A program made the position numbers and the translations under genes. A stretch of DNA of 64,000 nt from Minisyncoccota bacterium (GTDB lineage: Bacteria; Patescibacteriota; Minisyncoccia; Phycocordibacterales; UBA9973): NCBI GenBank assembly GCA_041664745.1, contig JBAYKD010000003.1, forward strand, positions 29,412-93,411, in the 5' to 3' direction. Shown piece after piece: positions 34,090 to 43,417 of this stretch. The first letter of the stretch is position 1. Each line of letters begins with the position of its first letter. The notes beneath the pieces are model-generated. The model ran no database searches. It was not told the origin of the DNA and saw only the letters and a program-made list of their open reading frames with translations.

Positions 34090-34524
34090 CTATTTTACCA
34101 TATTATCAAGATAATTTTTAGCCTCTTTCAAAACCTCATTTCGGCTCTCATGGTAGAAAATATCTAATGCTTCTTTAAATGTTACCCACTTATATTCACT
34201 AACTTCTTTCTCATCAATTTTAACATTCTTATCGTCTACAAACCCTATAAAATATTCATTAACTTTTAATTTATTCCCTTCAGTATAAGAAAGTTCATAT
34301 TCCTCATGAATAAGAGGAAAATCTAGAATTTTTATTTTAGTTATACCAGTCTCCTCTTCTAACTCACGCATGGCTGTCTCAATCGGAGTCTCACCTTCCT
34401 CCATGTGACCCTTAGCAAAACTCCAATTATCAATATTGGTTTTTATTTGTTTAAGAATTAAAAATTTAGGTTGTTCTTCTTTGAAAACAACAATAACACC
34501 ATAACATTGTTCTATTGGTAACAT
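34090..34524 (-). CDS. NUDIX hydrolase (Ap4A-hydrolase-like)
   Basis: Nudix box GHMEEGETPIETAMRELEEETGI. The start codon abuts the ileS stop. Confidence 0.75.
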   Translation of the reverse strand: MLPIEQCYGVIVVFKEEQPKFLILKQIKTNIDNWSFAKGHMEEGETPIETAMRELEEETGITKIKILDFPLIHEEYELSYTEGNKLKVNEYFIGFVDDKNVKIDEKEVSEYKWVTFKEALDIFYHESRNEVLKEAKNYLDNMVK

Positions 34525-34525
34525 G

Positions 34526-37500
34526 CTATAAAAGACTAATCTTAAATATTAATTCCCCAATTTTTATTTCTGTGCCCTCTACTTCTTTTATTTGTATTTC
34601 TTTGGCACTGACTGTCTTTATGAGTTCTGTCTTAAATTTATTTATTAATTTCTGCCCATTTACATTTGTACTGATAACAAGAGTAACAACATCATTAGGA
34701 TTTAATCCTTTATTCTTTCTCTCATCTTGAATCGCTCGAATAAGCTCACGATACTGACCTTCAAAACGAAGATCCTCTGTAATATGAGTATCGAGCTCTA
34801 TTTTTTGTTCTTCTCCTTCTATAAATTTAACATTCTTTATGTTTAATTCATCCTTCAATATTTCAATGTACTCATCCTTAATCTTATACTTAGTTGCTAT
34901 TAATTTATTTAATGGCTGACGTACTGGTATTCCAACTTTTTGTCTGGCTTGTAATCCAAGAGTGACAACTTCACGAACTTCTTTCATTTCTTTAATAATT
35001 TCAGTATTTATATTTTTAACTTCAATATTTGCGACAAAATCTGTGAGATGAATACTAATAGAATCTCCATCCAATCTTAATTTCTTCCATACATCTTCGG
35101 CTATAAATGGCATAAACGGAGCAAAAAGTTTTGCTGTCGTTTTCAATACAAAATACAAAGTACTCTTGGCCTCTTTGTCTCCATCCTTTATTCGATCCCT
35201 TGAACGACGTAAATACCACGTTGAAAGATCTTCAATAAATAATTCATATGGTTTGGTGGATAAAGATAAATCATATATCTCCATACCATCTTTCATTTCA
35301 TTAATAAATTGATATAGTCGAGCAATTATCCACTGATCTAAAATGTTTGTCGATGCTTTATATTCCATACCTTCAATATCATGATCACGATAAAGTTCGT
35401 AAAAAGCTACTACGTTGTCAAAACGACTTATAATCTTGCTTGAAACTTCTTGAACTAATTTCTCAGAGAAATTTACATCTTCACCTTTCATTAAAGTACT
35501 AGACATCAGATAAAAACGAAGAGCATCAACTCCATACTTGTTGAACAAAAGCCAAGGGTCTGGAAAATTCATTTTTGATTTCGCCATTTTACTTCCATCT
35601 TCGGCTAAAACTGTACCGGTGGTCACTATATTCTCAAATGGTGCTTTACCAAATAAAATAGTAGAAATAACATGTGTATAGTAAAACCAAGTTCTCGTCT
35701 GAGCAATATACTCAGCTACAAATCCTCCAGGGAAATTGTCTTTCTGCCAATTCGGATTTTCAAATGGGAAGTGATCTTGAGCGAAAGGCATTGACCCTGA
35801 CTCAAACCAACAGTCAATAACTTCTGGAATCCTTTTGTATTCTTCTCCATCCTCACCAACTAAAATAATCGAATCTATATAAGGACGATGAAGATCTACC
35901 TCGTAATTACTATTGTGTGGAAGTGGAACAAAAGGAAGTGAGACTGCTTCTGCATTATCTAAATAATTATAACTCTTCTCGGGACCTACTAGATCAAGAG
36001 TTTTCTCTATACTTAAATTATTTACGCCAGCATACATGAGCCATACGGGACTTCCGTGCGTAATAATCAAAACATTTTTACCGGAATAACTTTTCTCAAT
36101 ATCATACAAGAAGCTCATAGATCTGCGTCGAACTTTTTCATATGATTCATTACCAATTGGTGCTTTGTAAAAATTTTCTACTGTTTTTGGAAAATCATTA
36201 TGATACTCTAACCATTTCTTGCCTTCATACATAGGAACTGACATTTCATGAAGACGATCATCAAAAATAATTTTCTCTTTATCGAAGCCAATAGCCTTCG
36301 CTACTAATTCTGCAGTCTCTTTTGTTCTCACAAAAGGAGAAGTGATTATCACATCAATATTTTCATTTTTTAATCCCTCCCCTGCTTTCTCTGCTTGGCT
36401 GCGTCCAAGTTCTGTAAGATTATCGTCATTATTTACTGTATCACTTATCAAACCTTTTACATTACACTCCGTCTCTCCATGACGCATCATGAAATATTTG
36501 TTACCAGACTTTTTTACTTTTGATTTTAAATCTTCTAGTGAACTTACCATCATCACCTTGCCTTCTTTTGACTTCCAAATAGGAAGAGGACTCGCCCAAT
36601 AACGGTTACGAGATATGGTCCAGTCTGGTGCCGACTCCATAGTATTCTTGAAGCGTCCTTCTTTTAAGTGACCTGGAATCCAATTCATATCTTCACCTTT
36701 TAAAAGTAAATCATTCTTTACTTTTTGAATATTCACAAACCAAGATGGAAGTGCATAATAAAGAAGAGGAGTCTCACATCTGTAACAATGAGGGTATGAG
36801 TGAATTATTTTCTCTTTAGCGAAAAGGATACCTTTTTGAGCAAGATACTTAATGATCAAGACGTCTGTCGATTGATGATCCTCCTTTGGTTTAACTTTCA
36901 CATTTGGGAAATCAACTATCTCTTTTGAGAAATCTCCATTGGGTTCTACATGACGAATAAAAGGAATGTTGTGTTCTTTGGCCAAATTCATATCATCTTC
37001 ACCAAAAGCTGGAGCTTCATGTGCAATACCTGTACCCTTATCTATGGTTACAAAATCTGCATGCCAAATTTTCCAAATATTTTCCTTATTTGGCATATCT
37101 ACATTCTTGTAGTAATCAAATATTGGCTCATATGAAAGGCCAACGAGTTCATTACCTTTAAGTTCTTTTACTTCTACTTGTGTTTCATTGTATCCATTTA
37201 ATAAATATTTTTTATTCTTCAATACACCTGATCCTTCTTCAATACCATCAGGGTGAGAGATAAAATGATTAAAATAATCTTTACTGAATAAATAACTTTC
37301 GCCATTTTTAAATATTACATTTTTACTATCTAATATAGTCATCTGGATGTACTCAATATCATTATTTACCGCAATCGCCGTATTTCCTGGAAGAGTCCAA
37401 GGCGTTGTCGTCCAAGCAAGTAAATATGTATCTTTATATTTTTCATCTAAAATTTTAAACTTCACATAGACAGAAATATCTGTAATATCTTTATAACTAT

Positions 37501-38104
37501 TATCCATAGCTATTTCGGAATTTGCTATCGGAGTCTCACAACGTGGACAATAAGCAAGAACTCTCACTCCTTCATAGAGTAATCCCTTCTTGTTCATCTC
37601 ACCTAGCGCCCACCAGACACTCTCTATGAAAGTGTTATCCATCGTTTTATATGAATTATCAAAATCTACCCAGCGTCCCATACGATCGACTGTCTTCTTC
37701 CATTCATTTACATAAGTAAGAACTTTACTGCGAGCATGATCGGTAAATTTATCTATACCGAGAGCTTCAATAGCTTTCTTGCCTGAAATTCCTAAATCTT
37801 TTTCAACAATATTTTCGATCGGTAATCCATGACAATCCCAGCCCCAACGACGAGGTACGGTATAGCCACTCATGGTCTTGTACCTACCAATAACATCTTT
37901 CACAGTACTACCGAGAATGTGCCCATAGTGAGGAAGCCCTGAAGCAAAAGGAGGTCCATCATAAAAAACATACTTTCCTTTTGGTGCATCTTTCTCTAGA
38001 CTTTTTTTGAAGACGTCATTCTCTTTCCAGAATTGCAAAATAGCTTCTTCTCGGAGTGCTAATTGCGACTTCACTATTTCATTTGCTTTCTTTTTATCTT
38101 CCAT
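34526..38104 (-). CDS. ileS: Isoleucine--tRNA ligase carrying an inserted histidine-phosphatase (PGAM-like) domain
   Basis: HIGH-type motif (PHYGHILG), CP1 editing motif WTTTPWTLPGNTA and KMAKSKMN. The 1192-aa length is explained by a ~200-aa RHG...H domain between IWKSKEGKVMMV and DLHRPYID. Confidence 0.9.
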   Translation of the reverse strand: MEDKKKANEIVKSQLALREEAILQFWKENDVFKKSLEKDAPKGKYVFYDGPPFASGLPHYGHILGSTVKDVIGRYKTMSGYTVPRRWGWDCHGLPIENIVEKDLGISGKKAIEALGIDKFTDHARSKVLTYVNEWKKTVDRMGRWVDFDNSYKTMDNTFIESVWWALGEMNKKGLLYEGVRVLAYCPRCETPIANSEIAMDNSYKDITDISVYVKFKILDEKYKDTYLLAWTTTPWTLPGNTAIAVNNDIEYIQMTILDSKNVIFKNGESYLFSKDYFNHFISHPDGIEEGSGVLKNKKYLLNGYNETQVEVKELKGNELVGLSYEPIFDYYKNVDMPNKENIWKIWHADFVTIDKGTGIAHEAPAFGEDDMNLAKEHNIPFIRHVEPNGDFSKEIVDFPNVKVKPKEDHQSTDVLIIKYLAQKGILFAKEKIIHSYPHCYRCETPLLYYALPSWFVNIQKVKNDLLLKGEDMNWIPGHLKEGRFKNTMESAPDWTISRNRYWASPLPIWKSKEGKVMMVSSLEDLKSKVKKSGNKYFMMRHGETECNVKGLISDTVNNDDNLTELGRSQAEKAGEGLKNENIDVIITSPFVRTKETAELVAKAIGFDKEKIIFDDRLHEMSVPMYEGKKWLEYHNDFPKTVENFYKAPIGNESYEKVRRRSMSFLYDIEKSYSGKNVLIITHGSPVWLMYAGVNNLSIEKTLDLVGPEKSYNYLDNAEAVSLPFVPLPHNSNYEVDLHRPYIDSIILVGEDGEEYKRIPEVIDCWFESGSMPFAQDHFPFENPNWQKDNFPGGFVAEYIAQTRTWFYYTHVISTILFGKAPFENIVTTGTVLAEDGSKMAKSKMNFPDPWLLFNKYGVDALRFYLMSSTLMKGEDVNFSEKLVQEVSSKIISRFDNVVAFYELYRDHDIEGMEYKASTNILDQWIIARLYQFINEMKDGMEIYDLSLSTKPYELFIEDLSTWYLRRSRDRIKDGDKEAKSTLYFVLKTTAKLFAPFMPFIAEDVWKKLRLDGDSISIHLTDFVANIEVKNINTEIIKEMKEVREVVTLGLQARQKVGIPVRQPLNKLIATKYKIKDEYIEILKDELNIKNVKFIEGEEQKIELDTHITEDLRFEGQYRELIRAIQDERKNKGLNPNDVVTLVISTNVNGQKLINKFKTELIKTVSAKEIQIKEVEGTEIKIGELIFKISLL
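35906..36502 (-). other. Histidine phosphatase superfamily (branch 1, PGAM/cofactor-dependent mutase-like) domain inserted in IleRS
   Basis: YFMMRHGETECN (RHG), SPFVRTKETA (second Arg), HEMSVPMYEGK (Glu) and LIITHGSPV (second His), covering aa ~535-733 of the ORF. Confidence 0.75.
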
Positions 38105-38150
38105 ATATTTAAATTTTTATAACTAATAATATTTTTCTATATTTTCTCTA

Positions 38151-38184
38151 GTGGCATATCTACGCCATGGCGTAGATATGCCAC
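38151..38184. repeat. 34-nt perfect palindrome in the ileS 5' UTR
   Basis: GTGGCATATCTACGCCATGGCGTAGATATGCCAC equals its own reverse complement (15-bp stem, 4-nt loop). It lies between the T-box terminator and the ileS ATG. Confidence 0.7.
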
Positions 38185-38190
38185 TTCAAT

Positions 38191-38394
38191 AAAAAAACTC
38201 GTCCACGTACAACAATTACAATAATTGCTATACAAGGACGAGCTTCTCTCGTGGTACCACCTCGTTTACTTCTCATTTAAAGGGTTCTACTTCGTCGTGA
38301 GGTCTTGCCTCACGATGTTTCTTCCCAATGCTCCGAGGCGATAACCTCTTCACTGCATATACTTGAATAATAACACCAAAATAAAAATTTGCAA
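38191..38394 (-). promoter_or_regulatory. T-box riboswitch leader of ileS (promoter, short Stem I region, T-box/antiterminator, terminator)
   Basis: On the minus strand, TTGCAA-16 nt-TATTAT is followed by ...AACGAGGUGGUACCACGAGAGAAGCUCGUCC. The core GGUGGUACC matches the conserved T-box sequence. CUCGUCC can pair either with upstream ACGAG or with downstream GGACGAG, which is followed by U7 (a long terminator stem). AUC (Ile) triplets lie at 38340-38342 and 38314-38316. Confidence 0.75.
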
Positions 38395-38514
38395 GAAAAT
38401 TAATCTGGGTGTAGTATCTAATCGAATTGCACTTTTTAGGACATTACATTTAGATGGGTGTCTATAAGATTATTTTTCAAAAATTGGTTTAATGCGCGCT
38501 TATATAAACTAGTC

Positions 38515-38795
38515 AGAAAAAAGTAATCTTTTAAAGGAATCACACGTTGGAACAACACAGCCAAAATGCTGAAAAGCAGAAGAACGTTGGTGTGCCGAGG
38601 TGGTTAGGTGTCAAACTGAAGGATCAGGAAATACGTGCCAGCAGACGCGGTTATACGTATACCTAATTCAGGTTCAGCAATTCTAGCTTTGAAAGGGAAA
38701 CATATAGCGAAAGCTAGACCAAGTGGCCAAGAAGTATCCCACTCAAAGTGAAAAGACCCTGTCTGTTCTAACGAGCAGCAGGGTTCTTTTATTTT
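38515..38795 (+). ncRNA. Unclassified structured RNA containing a 16S rRNA helix-18/530-loop look-alike; 5' end uncertain
   Basis: No ORF is present. Stems include CTAGCTTT(38683-90)/AAAGCTAG(38710-17), ATACGT/ACGTAT around GTGCCAGCAGACGCGGTTATAC (38635-38656), and AGTGG/CCACT. The region ends in a strong intrinsic terminator, ACCCTGTCTG...CAGCAGGGT followed by TCTTTTATTTTTT. Confidence 0.55.
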
Positions 38796-40466
38796 TTATA
38801 TGACTTCATTCTGATAACACTTTTCACAATAAATTATTTCAGGACGTTCTGGTGCATAAGATGTCTCAAATTCATTTGTACACCCTTCTTTCATACAAGA
38901 ACGATGCCAGAGTTTATTTGGTCCACGAGATTTTATTCTTCTATAGTGTCTACAATCAGGACAAAGTCGAGGAAGTGGAACATCTAGTTTTTTGTAAAAT
39001 AAAAATTCATTAGGAATTACTTTATAATTCTTGCTACAAGATTCACAGACATAAATTTCTTGTGTTGCATCAAAATCAATCTCAGAGAAACTTTCTGGTA
39101 TTTCTTCTATCTTCTTCGTTTCTTTATCATATGTCCCTCTTTCTGTATCTTCCCACTTAAAACCTTGAGATAAAGCTTTTTCTTTAGATAATATAAACTG
39201 CTCATAAGCTGGAGTCTCGTTGTAACCAAAGCAAGATAAGTCTTTATTAAAGAATTCTCCATACCGTCCACTTTCTCTTAATTCATTTTTTATTTTATTT
39301 AAAATCTCTTCATACTCTTTCTTTTCATATTGTTTATTTAAAATACAATAATTCTTTTTCCTTAAACCTACACAACCAAAACAATTATTGGAATTGAAAC
39401 AATACATAGAATATTCTACAAATGAACAAGTCCAACAAAGAGCATCACAAATTAGATTTGAATTATCAATACCTGTATTTATAGAATTATAAATAAGGGA
39501 AGCATTTCTACCCGCAGTATCACAGTCCATAGTATCTTTAGCATTACGCCATATATGTACCCCATATTTATTATCTTCAGCCTCATAACAGTGGAAACAT
39601 GATCTACAATTTTTTACATTTTTCATATAAGAACCTGTAGAATTTACAGCTTTCATTATTTCTGCAAATTTACGAGGTTGCTTCTTCAAAAAATCTTCAT
39701 ATTTTTCTCTAAAGTTTTTAATTCCTGAAGAAGTATTAATCGCTAATTCTTTTTTAATTTTTTCATATTCTTCTTTTGAATATTTTTCATTAAAAATATA
39801 ATTACTTTTATCCCGCAAATTTATACATCCAATACAATCCGTGCAACCTTTGCAATCGGTTAAAAAGTAACTTGTCGTACAATCATGACATCCTTTACTA
39901 TATAAAAGCTTATAGGAATTGTAACAATCATCAGATTCATAAGTCAGCTCACATTTTGAAGCAAAAGAAGTATCTACTACATCCCTACATTCTTGAATCC
40001 AATAAGAGTGAATAGAATCTTCGTTGTTTGATGATTCTATAATAAAATAACAATTCTTATTATCAGCAGAGATATTGGTATAATCACTCCCAGGACTTCG
40101 CATATAGATAAGTGAAACCTTAGGGACAGATTGCCACAACTTTTTAAATTGTTCAAAAAATGAAATCTCCGGATTATAATCTAAGCCATAATCTTCCCCT
40201 CCCCAATCATCAGCAAACCAACAATCATAACACCAAATCTTAAATGGCTTGTTTTCTGAATACATTGATATTACATCTTTATCACATTTATCACATTTCC
40301 TTTTATAAAAAGTTCTTTCATTACGAAAACTTAAGCGAAGTTGAGCCCTACAATCTGGACATATGGAAGGAGCATTTATTCCTATCTTTTCATAAAAACC
40401 AAAATCATCAGATTCTATAATAAAGTCTTTTTTACAATTCTGACATATTTTGGTTTGAGAATTCAT
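38796..40466 (-). CDS. Cys-rich hypothetical protein with terminal zinc-ribbon modules and an internal duplicated Cys-cluster domain
   Basis: The N-terminal CQNCKKDFIIESDDFGFYEKIGINAPSICPDCRAQLR is mirrored by the C-terminal CESCSKNYKVIPNEFLFYKKLDVPLPRLCPDCRHYRR. The internal repeat CHDC...CKGCTDCIGCINLRDKSNYIFNEKYSKEEYEKI pairs with CWTC...CFNSNNCFGCVGLRKKNYCILNKQYEKKEYEEI. Confidence 0.6.
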   Translation of the reverse strand: MNSQTKICQNCKKDFIIESDDFGFYEKIGINAPSICPDCRAQLRLSFRNERTFYKRKCDKCDKDVISMYSENKPFKIWCYDCWFADDWGGEDYGLDYNPEISFFEQFKKLWQSVPKVSLIYMRSPGSDYTNISADNKNCYFIIESSNNEDSIHSYWIQECRDVVDTSFASKCELTYESDDCYNSYKLLYSKGCHDCTTSYFLTDCKGCTDCIGCINLRDKSNYIFNEKYSKEEYEKIKKELAINTSSGIKNFREKYEDFLKKQPRKFAEIMKAVNSTGSYMKNVKNCRSCFHCYEAEDNKYGVHIWRNAKDTMDCDTAGRNASLIYNSINTGIDNSNLICDALCWTCSFVEYSMYCFNSNNCFGCVGLRKKNYCILNKQYEKKEYEEILNKIKNELRESGRYGEFFNKDLSCFGYNETPAYEQFILSKEKALSQGFKWEDTERGTYDKETKKIEEIPESFSEIDFDATQEIYVCESCSKNYKVIPNEFLFYKKLDVPLPRLCPDCRHYRRIKSRGPNKLWHRSCMKEGCTNEFETSYAPERPEIIYCEKCYQNEVI

Positions 40467-42484: not shown

Positions 42485-42913
42485 TTATTTATGTCCTGTT
42501 GTTCCAAACCCTCCACGATTACTACTACTCATAATATCAACTTCCTCCCATTCTGCAATATCAACCCTTACAAAGACTCCCTGTCCTAAACGTTCTCCTT
42601 TTTCTATTGTAACATCATTATCTGTCATATTATAAACCTGTAATAATATCTCATCAGATTCACCATGATAATCATTGTCGATATATCCTACACTAACAAA
42701 GAGACCCTTCTTTTTCAAAGTACTAGATCTGTCTTTAATCTCTAACATATATCCCTTTGGAATCTCAATGATCACATTGGTTGGTAGGCGCTCTAATGTC
42801 TTAGGCAAGATAACAGCATCAATACGAGAATACAAATCAAAAGCTACCGCCCCTAGAGTATGATATTCTGGCAATGGAAAACTTTTATCTATTCTTTTAA
42901 TTTTGATTTTCAT
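42485..42913 (-). CDS. dut: dUTP diphosphatase
   Basis: 142 aa with a trimeric dUTPase-like sequence and C-terminal motif V (SSNRGGFGTTG). Confidence 0.8.
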   Translation of the reverse strand: MKIKIKRIDKSFPLPEYHTLGAVAFDLYSRIDAVILPKTLERLPTNVIIEIPKGYMLEIKDRSSTLKKKGLFVSVGYIDNDYHGESDEILLQVYNMTDNDVTIEKGERLGQGVFVRVDIAEWEEVDIMSSSNRGGFGTTGHK

Positions 42914-42985: not shown

Positions 42986-43417
42986 TTATTCTTTATCATA
43001 AAAGTTTTTCCCTGTTATAAATGAATCCAATGTAATCTGTGTTGGATAAAATAAGGGTGAAGGTAATTCATCAATTGAACACCACTGCCAATCTCCTATC
43101 TTTTCATTTGGAAAATTTGTCTCTTCTCCGTCTTCCCAATCTGCAACAAAATTAGCTAAAATATCTTGTCTGTCTTCGTGCTTTTTGTAATTTGCCAAAG
43201 ACATGAAAATTATATTTTTTATATTAATTCCAGCTTCTTCTAAAACCTCTCTTTTAACACACTCTGCAAAAGATTCATCATATTCTAGATGTCCTCCAGG
43301 AAAAGAATACTCACCTGATCCATGAGAACCTTTTCTCTTCCCTATTAGAACCTTTCCTTCTTTCCAAATCATTATACCTACACAAGGTTTTAATTTATCT
43401 CTTTGTCCTTCTATCAT
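42986..43417 (-). CDS. NUDIX hydrolase (MutT-like)
   Basis: Nudix box GGHLEYDESFAECVKREVLEEAGI. Confidence 0.75.
   Translation of the reverse strand: MIEGQRDKLKPCVGIMIWKEGKVLIGKRKGSHGSGEYSFPGGHLEYDESFAECVKREVLEEAGINIKNIIFMSLANYKKHEDRQDILANFVADWEDGEETNFPNEKIGDWQWCSIDELPSPLFYPTQITLDSFITGKNFYDKE

Follow-up and report, generated by a model that had tools for sequence, protein, structure and literature searches.

In Parcubacteria and Paceibacteria, a subfamily of histidine phosphatases (HPs) is a dedicated companion of isoleucyl-tRNA synthetase (IleRS), either nested inside the synthetase or encoded by an abutting upstream gene. The case analysed here is ileS in a 64,000-nucleotide (nt) stretch of a Minisyncoccota bacterium (contig JBAYKD010000003.1 of assembly GCA_041664745.1, positions 29,412 to 93,411), hereafter called the window. 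As judged from its sequence, the encoded type-2 IleRS carries a complete branch-1 HP with an intact catalytic set, which replaces the short linker between the two hairpins of a former Zn knuckle. The domain is apparently active, and an undescribed phosphate-removing step seems to be tied to isoleucyl-tRNA synthesis in this large group.

A synthetase with a nested phosphatase

The ileS gene lies on the minus strand at 34526..38104, where the original prediction had placed an open reading frame (ORF) of 1192 residues. The frame is uninterrupted and ends with the stop codon TAG at 34526-34528. Profile scores and motifs identify its product as a complete type-2 IleRS. The protein scores 800.2 bits against the NCBIfam ileS equivalog TIGR00392 (cutoff 621.4), and its best match among solved structures is the IleRS2 of Priestia megaterium (PmIleRS2, 8c8u, E 4e-211). 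In Pfam searches, tRNA-synt_1 (PF00133) is split into two stretches by His_Phos_1 and followed by Anticodon_1 and DUF5915. The N-terminal part (residues 1-534; 36503..38104, on the minus strand like all ileS features below) makes up the first half of the Rossmann/HUP fold. It holds the HIGH-type motif HYGH (residues 59-62; 37919-37930), TTTPWT in the connective peptide 1 (CP1)/editing domain (residues 232-237; 37394-37411), the segment WTISRNRYWASPLPIW (36575-36622) and the first hairpin of the former Zn knuckle. The C-terminal part (residues 734-1192; 34529..35905) includes the second hairpin, DLHRPYID (35873-35896), DCWFESGS (35792-35815), the KMAKS loop (residues 839-843; 35576-35590), Anticodon_1 and DUF5915. 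The synthetase motifs that flank the insert are intact, as predicted: HYGH, TTTPWT and KM[SA]KS are invariant in an alignment of 121 sequences. Neither the window nor the related loci inspected showed a second ileS.

Between the two parts, residues 535-733 form the nested His_Phos_1 domain with its linkers; they correspond exactly to the interval 35906..36502 proposed for the insert, and the Pfam core spans residues 538-713. The match to PF00300, nested inside PF00133 as anticipated, has an E-value of 1.3e-36 and 126.5 bits (cutoff 21.7) and covers profile positions 2-177 of 194. All the catalytic hallmarks reported for the segment were recovered: the RHG motif with R541, the nucleophile H542 and G543 (36476..36484), the second phosphate-pocket arginine R593 (SPFVRTKETA; 36326..36328), the predicted general acid E620 (LHEMS; 36245..36247) and the second catalytic histidine H683 (ITHGSPVW; 36056..36058). 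Together with N548, these residues fall in the catalytic columns of PhoE (1ebb/1h2e) and PspA (4ij5), with which the whole length of the insert can be aligned. The same catalytic set is conserved in more than 400 HP domains.

Comparison with ordinary synthetases shows how much has been added. Residues 515 to 731 of the window protein correspond to residues 461 to 481 of 8c8u, a gain of about 196 residues. The position is occupied by about 200 residues in the window protein, by about 20 in PmIleRS2 and by only 11-13 in insert-less relatives, which agrees with the short linker that had been assumed for ordinary IleRS enzymes. An AlphaFold2 (AF2) model built from a 60-sequence alignment is mediocre overall, with a predicted local distance difference test score (pLDDT) of 74.9 and a predicted template-modelling score of 0.61. 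Its most confident part is the insert: over residues 520-760, blocks of ten residues have pLDDT 83-95. The insert is modelled as a discrete lobe, and strands and helices alternate over residues 536-723 as in the α/β phosphoglycerate-mutase-like fold. A Foldseek search of the model against the PDB returned only ordinary IleRS, ValRS and LeuRS structures, none with a comparable insert. The model is poor in a segment of the CP1/editing region (residues 251-300; 37205-37354), which varies between lineages, with 59% gaps and 8% identity among 120 homologues.

Conservation of the nested domain

The 120 best matches to the window protein in a collection of 5.8 billion proteins are 59-87% identical to it and 1145-1232 residues long, and PF00300 accompanies the IleRS domains in every one of them. 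Their sources are independent assemblies (NCBI, JGI, ENA, Logan), and those with names belong to Paceibacterota, Parcubacteria, Nomurabacteria or Patescibacteria. In the 121-sequence alignment, identity to the query averages 0.45 for the insert, compared with 0.72 and 0.66 for the synthetase parts. Nevertheless R541, H542, S589, R593, E620 and H683 are invariant in all 121 sequences, and N548 is present in 115; in split-gene relatives the position of E620 holds E or D. Since the catalytic residues are invariant in an otherwise poorly conserved insert, purifying selection appears to act on catalysis.

These data also bear on whether the arrangement could be an artefact of chimeric assembly or of adjacent genes mis-called as one read-through frame. 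One related case does look like the latter, a single ArgRS-HP 'fusion' (P0268) in which argS was probably read through into the adjacent HP gene. For the window gene this explanation is almost certainly wrong and can be considered refuted. Synthetase sequence flanks the insert within one unbroken ORF, and GC content is uniform across the junctions (0.33-0.38 in the insert, like the flanks). Apart from the 120 nearest homologues, the identical architecture is found in 33 named GTDB genomes, including the two complete genomes CP179887.1 and AP024682.1. The original view of a real domain insertion is thereby upheld.

The same phosphatase as a free gene

The nested domain has relatives outside the synthetase. 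A phmmer search with the insert against 1.84 billion cluster representatives gave 1686 matches below 1e-10, 32 of them below 1e-30. Two main groups appear among the best 150: IleRS proteins or fragments that have the domain at the same place, with synthetase parts only 31-50% identical to the query, and free-standing proteins of about 190 residues that are 35-40% identical to the insert. Three split loci (L004-L006) from sister lineages illustrate the free form. Their gene order is argS, HP (186-195 residues), ileS (954-975 residues, without PF00300) and a gene of about 100 residues, beyond which follow RecO (in two of the three), a protein of about 555 residues, a class II aminoacyl-tRNA synthetase (aaRS) and an M16 peptidase. 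The spacing between HP and ileS ranges from a 4-nt overlap to 28 nt. This synteny matches that of the related loci L001-L003 and of the window, where argS, a 556-residue protein without assignment, ileS with its nested HP, NUDIX, a Ser-hydrolase, RecO, a 622-residue protein without assignment, a class II aaRS and an M16 peptidase follow one another.

To place these loci in a broader frame, GTDB was scanned, with one genome per species, using an alignment of free-standing HPs. The scan found at least 526 relatives, and the best 80 loci, each from a different genome, were classified by tblastn. The HP is nested in ileS in 33 of them, lies directly (<150 nt) upstream of ileS in another 33 and one gene away in 6, so that it is embedded in or co-located with its synthetase in the manner of aaRS accessory modules acting in cis or in trans; the remaining 8 have no ileS within the locus. 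By their titles the 80 loci span Nealson-, Staskawicz-, Jorgensen-, Lipton-, Colwell-, Azam- and Uhrbacteria, Minisyncoccales and Paceibacterota, and both complete genomes have the nested form. When the window and the flanks of nested loci were searched in six frames with hidden Markov models, no second HP was found. No genome occurs twice among the 80 either, and both results fit a single copy per genome, nested or split.

Two candidates for additional copies were discarded. A marginal HP-like ORF at one locus (L073) is spurious, and a tblastn search of 38001-38900, made to detect remains of a free HP gene ahead of the window's ileS, yielded nothing but matches with E>0.2. The 8 loci without ileS have heterogeneous neighbours with no common theme (chaperonin-like, membrane and SecA-like proteins, and ValRS/TsaD in L082). 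One nested locus (L048, DATJFD010000078.1) is titled 'Candidatus Binatia bacterium'; as it clusters with an Uhrbacteria locus (L074), it is probably a mis-binned Patescibacteria contig.

Insertion site and direction of change

All 27 complete nested genes that were examined share one insertion point, 8-10 residues past '...GS.xEL' and before 'G-x-(L/I)-D-(L/F)-HRP(Y/F)(I/V)D'. Nested forms also have a common C-terminal linker motif, (L/F/W)-P-(Y/F/L)-(N/D); in the window insert the linker '..LPFVPLPHNSN' is part of this conserved junction. In PmIleRS2 the HUP core is formed by residues 40-168 and 513-632 (Brkic et al. 2023). On that basis the insertion point falls within the connective peptides, immediately ahead of the second half of the catalytic fold and probably in CP2. 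Insert-less IleRS proteins keep a CxxC...CxxC zinc knuckle on either side of the 11-13-residue linker. The two pairs are retained in all split and most other nested forms, whereas the window's clade has lost all four cysteines (WKSKEGK and VGEDGEE; 36560-36580 and 35830-35870, residues ~509-515 and ~746-758).

To follow the history of the two arrangements, trees were built by neighbour joining (NJ). In the bootstrapped tree of IleRS cores without the HP (933 columns), the two kinds of gene are interspersed, and four clades with 98-100% bootstrap each contain both states. At locus L080 the host of the module is an IleRS-A-like backbone (SKKRYWGLALPI...GNPWLDAG); the 14 sequences nearest to it are split without exception. 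The two states are likewise mixed in the HP tree, and several nested HPs resemble a split HP more than they resemble any other nested HP (68 vs 57%; 64 vs 60%). Nested HPs are thus not monophyletic in either tree, yet they share one site and one linker motif. Because the short linker of split IleRS resembles that of IleRS2 from outside the Candidate Phyla Radiation (CPR), the nested form is the derived state. It may have arisen by repeated capture of the neighbouring gene or by lateral spread of one module through recombination; the common linker motif favours the latter. On this sequence record, the nested and the split arrangement behave as functionally equivalent and interchangeable, which is the strongest argument that the HP works on or with IleRS at this location.

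Other attachments and multi-copy forms

The same HP subfamily is attached to synthetases and related enzymes in further ways. Three IleRS proteins (P0167, P0198, P0244) have a second HP just before the anticodon-binding domain, another (P0213) has two tandem HPs at the main site, and P0123 combines the N-terminal part of a ValRS with four HP domains behind it. Fusions of HP with TsaC, the threonylcarbamoyl-AMP synthase, form a small clade (four 90% clusters) in which the HP keeps the 'SGNKYF.MRH' junction of nested IleRS forms. The catalytic R, H, R, E and H are kept in every copy scored, including the proteins with two to four copies, which argues for catalysis rather than a purely structural role. 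Only the auxiliary Asn is replaced, by A in one copy of P0123 and by Q in one tandem copy and in the ArgRS-fused copy. As a recurrent architecture the ArgRS fusion was rejected: a query with its junction returned 120 free-standing HPs and no further fusion.

Two observations stand apart from this series. In P0259, an IleRS with the nested HP, an IS200-like Y1 transposase domain lies in frame at residues 340-461, and a GNAT domain is present at the C-terminus. A mobile element may have inserted there, or the predicted protein may be chimeric or truncated. Patescibacteria TsaC (P0396-P0512) is joined to a range of partners, most commonly an MGMT DNA-binding domain, and also TruB, 2H/CPDase-type phosphoesterases, NUDIX, GNAT, a DNA glycosylase and HP.

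Relation to known families

The window HP resembles enzymes of the PhoE, PspA and CobC type (PF00300; 1ebb/1h2e, 4ij5, 6nru) in fold family, catalytic set, size and cap region. It differs from them in being nested in or operon-coupled to IleRS and in a subfamily signature of its own, consisting of N-x-Y-F-x-x-RHG, a W-P-E loop in most members and [ST]-H-G-x-P-x-W. It also stays below all equivalog cutoffs; the insert scores 69.5 bits against PspA (cutoff 350), 88.6 against CobC (162.9), 55 against GpmB (261) and 37.6 against SixA (74.5). The models of cofactor-dependent phosphoglycerate mutase (dPGM) are likewise not reached, with 87.5 of 225 bits for archaeal dPGM (NF038349), 32.2 of 81.7 for pgm_1 (TIGR01258) and 27 of 305 for PRK14115. 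Three substrate motifs are typical of dPGM, namely E-R-H-Y-G after the Glu, an R-R pair and H-G-N. By inspection all are absent from the insert, which reads LHEMSVPMYEG and THGSPV and has no RR pair in its cap; dPGM structures in the PDB align only to residues 2-69 of the HP. Given the missing motifs and the partial alignment, a mutase role is unlikely.

On the synthetase side, the window protein matches PmIleRS2 (8c8u) in its HIGH, KMSKS and editing motifs, in ARD/C-terminal organisation and in overall fold; the two differ by the insert and by the loss of the knuckle cysteines in the window's clade. The best NCBIfam match of the insert is the mycobacterial Rv2228c/RnhC (NF005567, 95.6 bits), in which RNase H is combined with a CobC-like acid phosphatase. 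Like the window protein, it joins a PhoE/CobC-like HP covalently to a nucleic-acid enzyme, but it is an end-to-end fusion with another partner in another lineage, and the insert scores far under the cutoff of 326. A further IleRS with an extra catalytic domain, in this case an N-acetyltransferase, is described by the NCBIfam model NF040702 ('ileS_w_GNAT'); domain, position and chemistry are different, and the window protein scores 321 against a cutoff of 1999.

Closer in the way it may work are the accessory hydrolases of other synthetases, which act on the tRNA 3' end and are found embedded or free: ProRS INS and YbaK-ProXp, the AlaRS editing domain and AlaXp, ThrRS N2 and ThrRS-ed. Similar to the HP, these modules are embedded in some lineages and separate in others, and they lie in or next to the catalytic domain. 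The comparison is one of arrangement and not of homology, as the editing modules are aminoacyl-ester hydrolases of unrelated folds with a known role, whereas phosphoryl-transfer chemistry is predicted for the HP. IleRS-HP can be regarded as one more synthetase that bears an accessory catalytic module; its predicted chemistry is unprecedented for such a module, and the evolutionary record of split and nested forms is unusually clear. A search of 8 million full texts found no published description of the nested architecture, and recent papers on IleRS phylogeny and structure do not mention a nested HP. Public sequences are annotated automatically as 'class I tRNA ligase family protein' or 'isoleucyl-tRNA synthetase'.

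What the phosphatase may do

On balance, we lean towards an active phosphatase that is functionally coupled to IleRS. Unless physical association is selected for, nested insertion at one site together with an abutting free gene is difficult to account for. The coupling is specific to IleRS, the free and nested partners are interchangeable at the rim of the catalytic fold, and accessory hydrolases provide a precedent, which together favour a phosphomonoesterase acting in cis. Such an HP would be in physical contact with IleRS, bound or tethered at the edge of the aminoacylation site, and would proceed via a phospho-enzyme intermediate at H542; split and nested arrangements would be two interchangeable ways to keep it there. 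Analogous to the CP1 editing domain, it could serve as a third catalytic 'station' for the mobile 3' end of tRNA(Ile), where a phosphate that blocks charging would be taken off, be it at the 2'/3' terminus or the last one on a pyrophosphorylated CCA end.

Among the specific mechanisms, we tentatively place a phosphorylated tRNA(Ile) 3' end first as substrate, by analogy with the editing modules, while regarding even this as well short of probable. Hydrolysis of nucleotide or phosphate species that are produced or bound at the synthetic site comes next and is somewhat less likely. It is doubtful whether the HP constitutes a new proofreading or repair station, in which the CCA end visits the phosphatase to lose a blocking 2'/3'-phosphate before charging. 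The blocking phosphate could then be left by an RNase or toxin that damaged the tRNA, or remain from a pyrophosphorylated end, and a compact T-box leader of ileS (see below) would read the damaged tRNA as 'uncharged' and induce the enzyme. The original prediction had suggested substrates of the Ap4A/Ap3A type. Branch-1 HPs act on terminal phosphoryl groups; since Ap4A and Ap3A have none, they are chemically unlikely substrates, and the NUDIX neighbour that had pointed in this direction is generic and not conserved.

Several observations weigh against an active phosphatase coupled to IleRS. Gene neighbourhood is broadly conserved in these streamlined genomes, which makes adjacency alone weak evidence, and the HP occurs without a nearby ileS in 8 of the 80 loci. 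HP and IleRS distances are only weakly correlated (Spearman 0.25), and the trees were inferred by NJ only. Against tRNA as the substrate in particular, the HP has a full PhoE-type cap region, a feature that goes with small-molecule substrates in characterised relatives. In the window's clade it is acidic (isoelectric point 5.5), with no sign of an RNA-binding surface; electrostatics proved uninformative as a clue to RNA binding, because the isoelectric point of the HP follows that of its host IleRS and of the proteome. Moreover, a general function in tRNA-end repair or on pyrophosphate (PPi) or AMP would not obviously need specificity for IleRS.

In an alternative reading, the HP acts on a small molecule that leaves the synthetic site, for example AMP, PPi or some other nucleotide phosphate. 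Its hydrolysis would pull adenylation or aminoacylation forward, or feed nucleoside salvage under a minimal nucleotide metabolism. The cap region is full-length, the closest characterised relatives are small-molecule phosphatases, PhoE, PspA and the nucleotide-5'-phosphate phosphatase CobC, and the fusion partners IleRS, ValRS, ArgRS and TsaC all convert ATP to AMP and PPi. The W-P-E loop conserved near the pocket of most subfamily members could stack on a base, and housecleaning hydrolases (NUDIX, HAD) are often neighbours. We nonetheless consider such product removal unlikely. AMP and PPi are made by every aaRS, yet the association is almost exclusive to IleRS; a purine auxotroph could ill afford to degrade AMP; the clade of the window has itself lost the W-P-E loop; and to our knowledge PPi hydrolysis is not documented for branch-1 HPs. 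A more remote alternative is that the domain is an ordinary phosphatase or mutase, such as the 'missing' phosphoglycerate mutase (PGM) of some Parcubacteria or a phosphoserine-type enzyme, whose gene was by chance located in the argS-ileS cluster and which was embedded by genome streamlining and has no mechanistic link to aminoacylation. PGM is absent from several shallow Parcubacteria clades, or possibly too divergent to be detected (Jaffe et al. 2020). The sub-threshold matches to the archaeal dPGM, GpmB and PspA models, the many seemingly arbitrary fusions in Patescibacteria, for example of TsaC with MGMT, TruB, NUDIX or GNAT, and the 8 loci at which HP and ileS do not adjoin would also fit. 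This reading has to contend, however, with equivalog scores and dPGM motifs that fall short as described above, with a dPGM structure alignment confined to the N-terminal ~70 residues, and with one precise site in several IleRS backbones that is interchangeable with a tightly abutting upstream gene, and we regard it as quite unlikely.

Least favoured among the functional alternatives, at a low probability, is a regulatory or protective protein phosphatase that dephosphorylates IleRS or a partner, for example reversing the action of HipA-type kinase toxins on class I synthetases, or a sensor of a phospho-metabolite that tunes charging. Some branch-1 HPs (SixA, PGAM5, Sts-1) are protein phosphatases, the insert has a weak SixA match, and tethering to its target would explain the specificity for IleRS. 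Against this, the HP domain is PhoE-sized and not SixA-like, the window and related loci give no evidence of a cognate kinase, and arrays of two to four copies would be odd for a self-directed regulator.

Neighbouring genes and leader

The gene after ileS in the window encodes a NUDIX protein (34090-34524, E 9e-21), whose ATG lies 1 nt past the ileS stop. The original prediction was right that a NUDIX gene adjoins ileS, but its label as Ap4A-hydrolase-like did not hold: no equivalog cutoff is reached, the best scores being 47 of 103 for NudB-like and 37 of 118 for RppH. The gene is absent after ileS in L002 and in the split-gene lineages L004-L006, while in L001 and L003 a HAD phosphatase follows the NUDIX. 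With neither a specific family assignment nor conserved adjacency, the NUDIX was dropped as an Ap4A-hydrolase partner. A second NUDIX (42986-43417) and a dUTPase (42485-42913), both on the minus strand, lie just upstream of argS, so the argS-ileS region is flanked on both sides by nucleotide 'housecleaning' hydrolases. The 556-residue protein between argS and ileS (38796-40466, minus strand) is very CxxC-rich and has no Pfam or NCBIfam match. An unannotated gene of 566-582 residues occupies this place in L001-L003; split lineages have the free HP there instead.

Upstream of ileS, a probable compact T-box leader can tentatively be placed at 38231..38362 on the minus strand. Its match to RF00230, found on 701 nt, has 38.6 bits, below the gathering score of 93, with E 5.5e-7. 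The T-box core is nearly perfect (GGUGGUACCACG; AAACGAGGUGGUACCACGAGAG), Stem I is reduced to a few nucleotides, and there is a possible AUC specifier. A terminator-like hairpin on the same strand (CUCGUCC...GGACGAG followed by U7; ~38191-38242) comes after the putative T-box. A search that was not exhaustive found no paper on T-boxes in CPR. A similar sub-threshold match (37.1 bits) was observed in L003 (5296-5456, plus strand), before a GNAT gene that abuts ileS with its nested HP; there GNAT, IleRS-HP, NUDIX and HAD may form one tRNA(Ile)-responsive operon. The T-box search gave no match in L001, L002 and L020. Two further features of the region are a perfect 34-nt palindrome, GTGGCATATCTACGCCATGGCGTAGATATGCCAC (38151-38184), between the putative terminator and the ileS start, and an ORF-free stretch (38363-38795) in which the GC skew flips sign.

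Implications

Synthetases are among the best-studied enzymes, and almost every accessory catalytic domain known from them edits aminoacyl esters. If a phosphoryl-transfer enzyme, nested or operon-linked, is obligately coupled to IleRS over hundreds of Parcubacteria species, this would mean something outside the current textbook. It could be a step in isoleucyl-tRNA metabolism that removes a phosphate from tRNA, from a nucleotide or from the synthetase itself. Alternatively, it would be an unusually clear natural case of a free partner being repeatedly converted into a nested domain at a permissive loop. The finding also allows the annotation to be corrected, as the NCBI name is currently only 'class I tRNA ligase family protein'. 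In either case, the split and nested pair offers a natural system for studying domain insertion and a testable handle on the translation biology of CPR bacteria.

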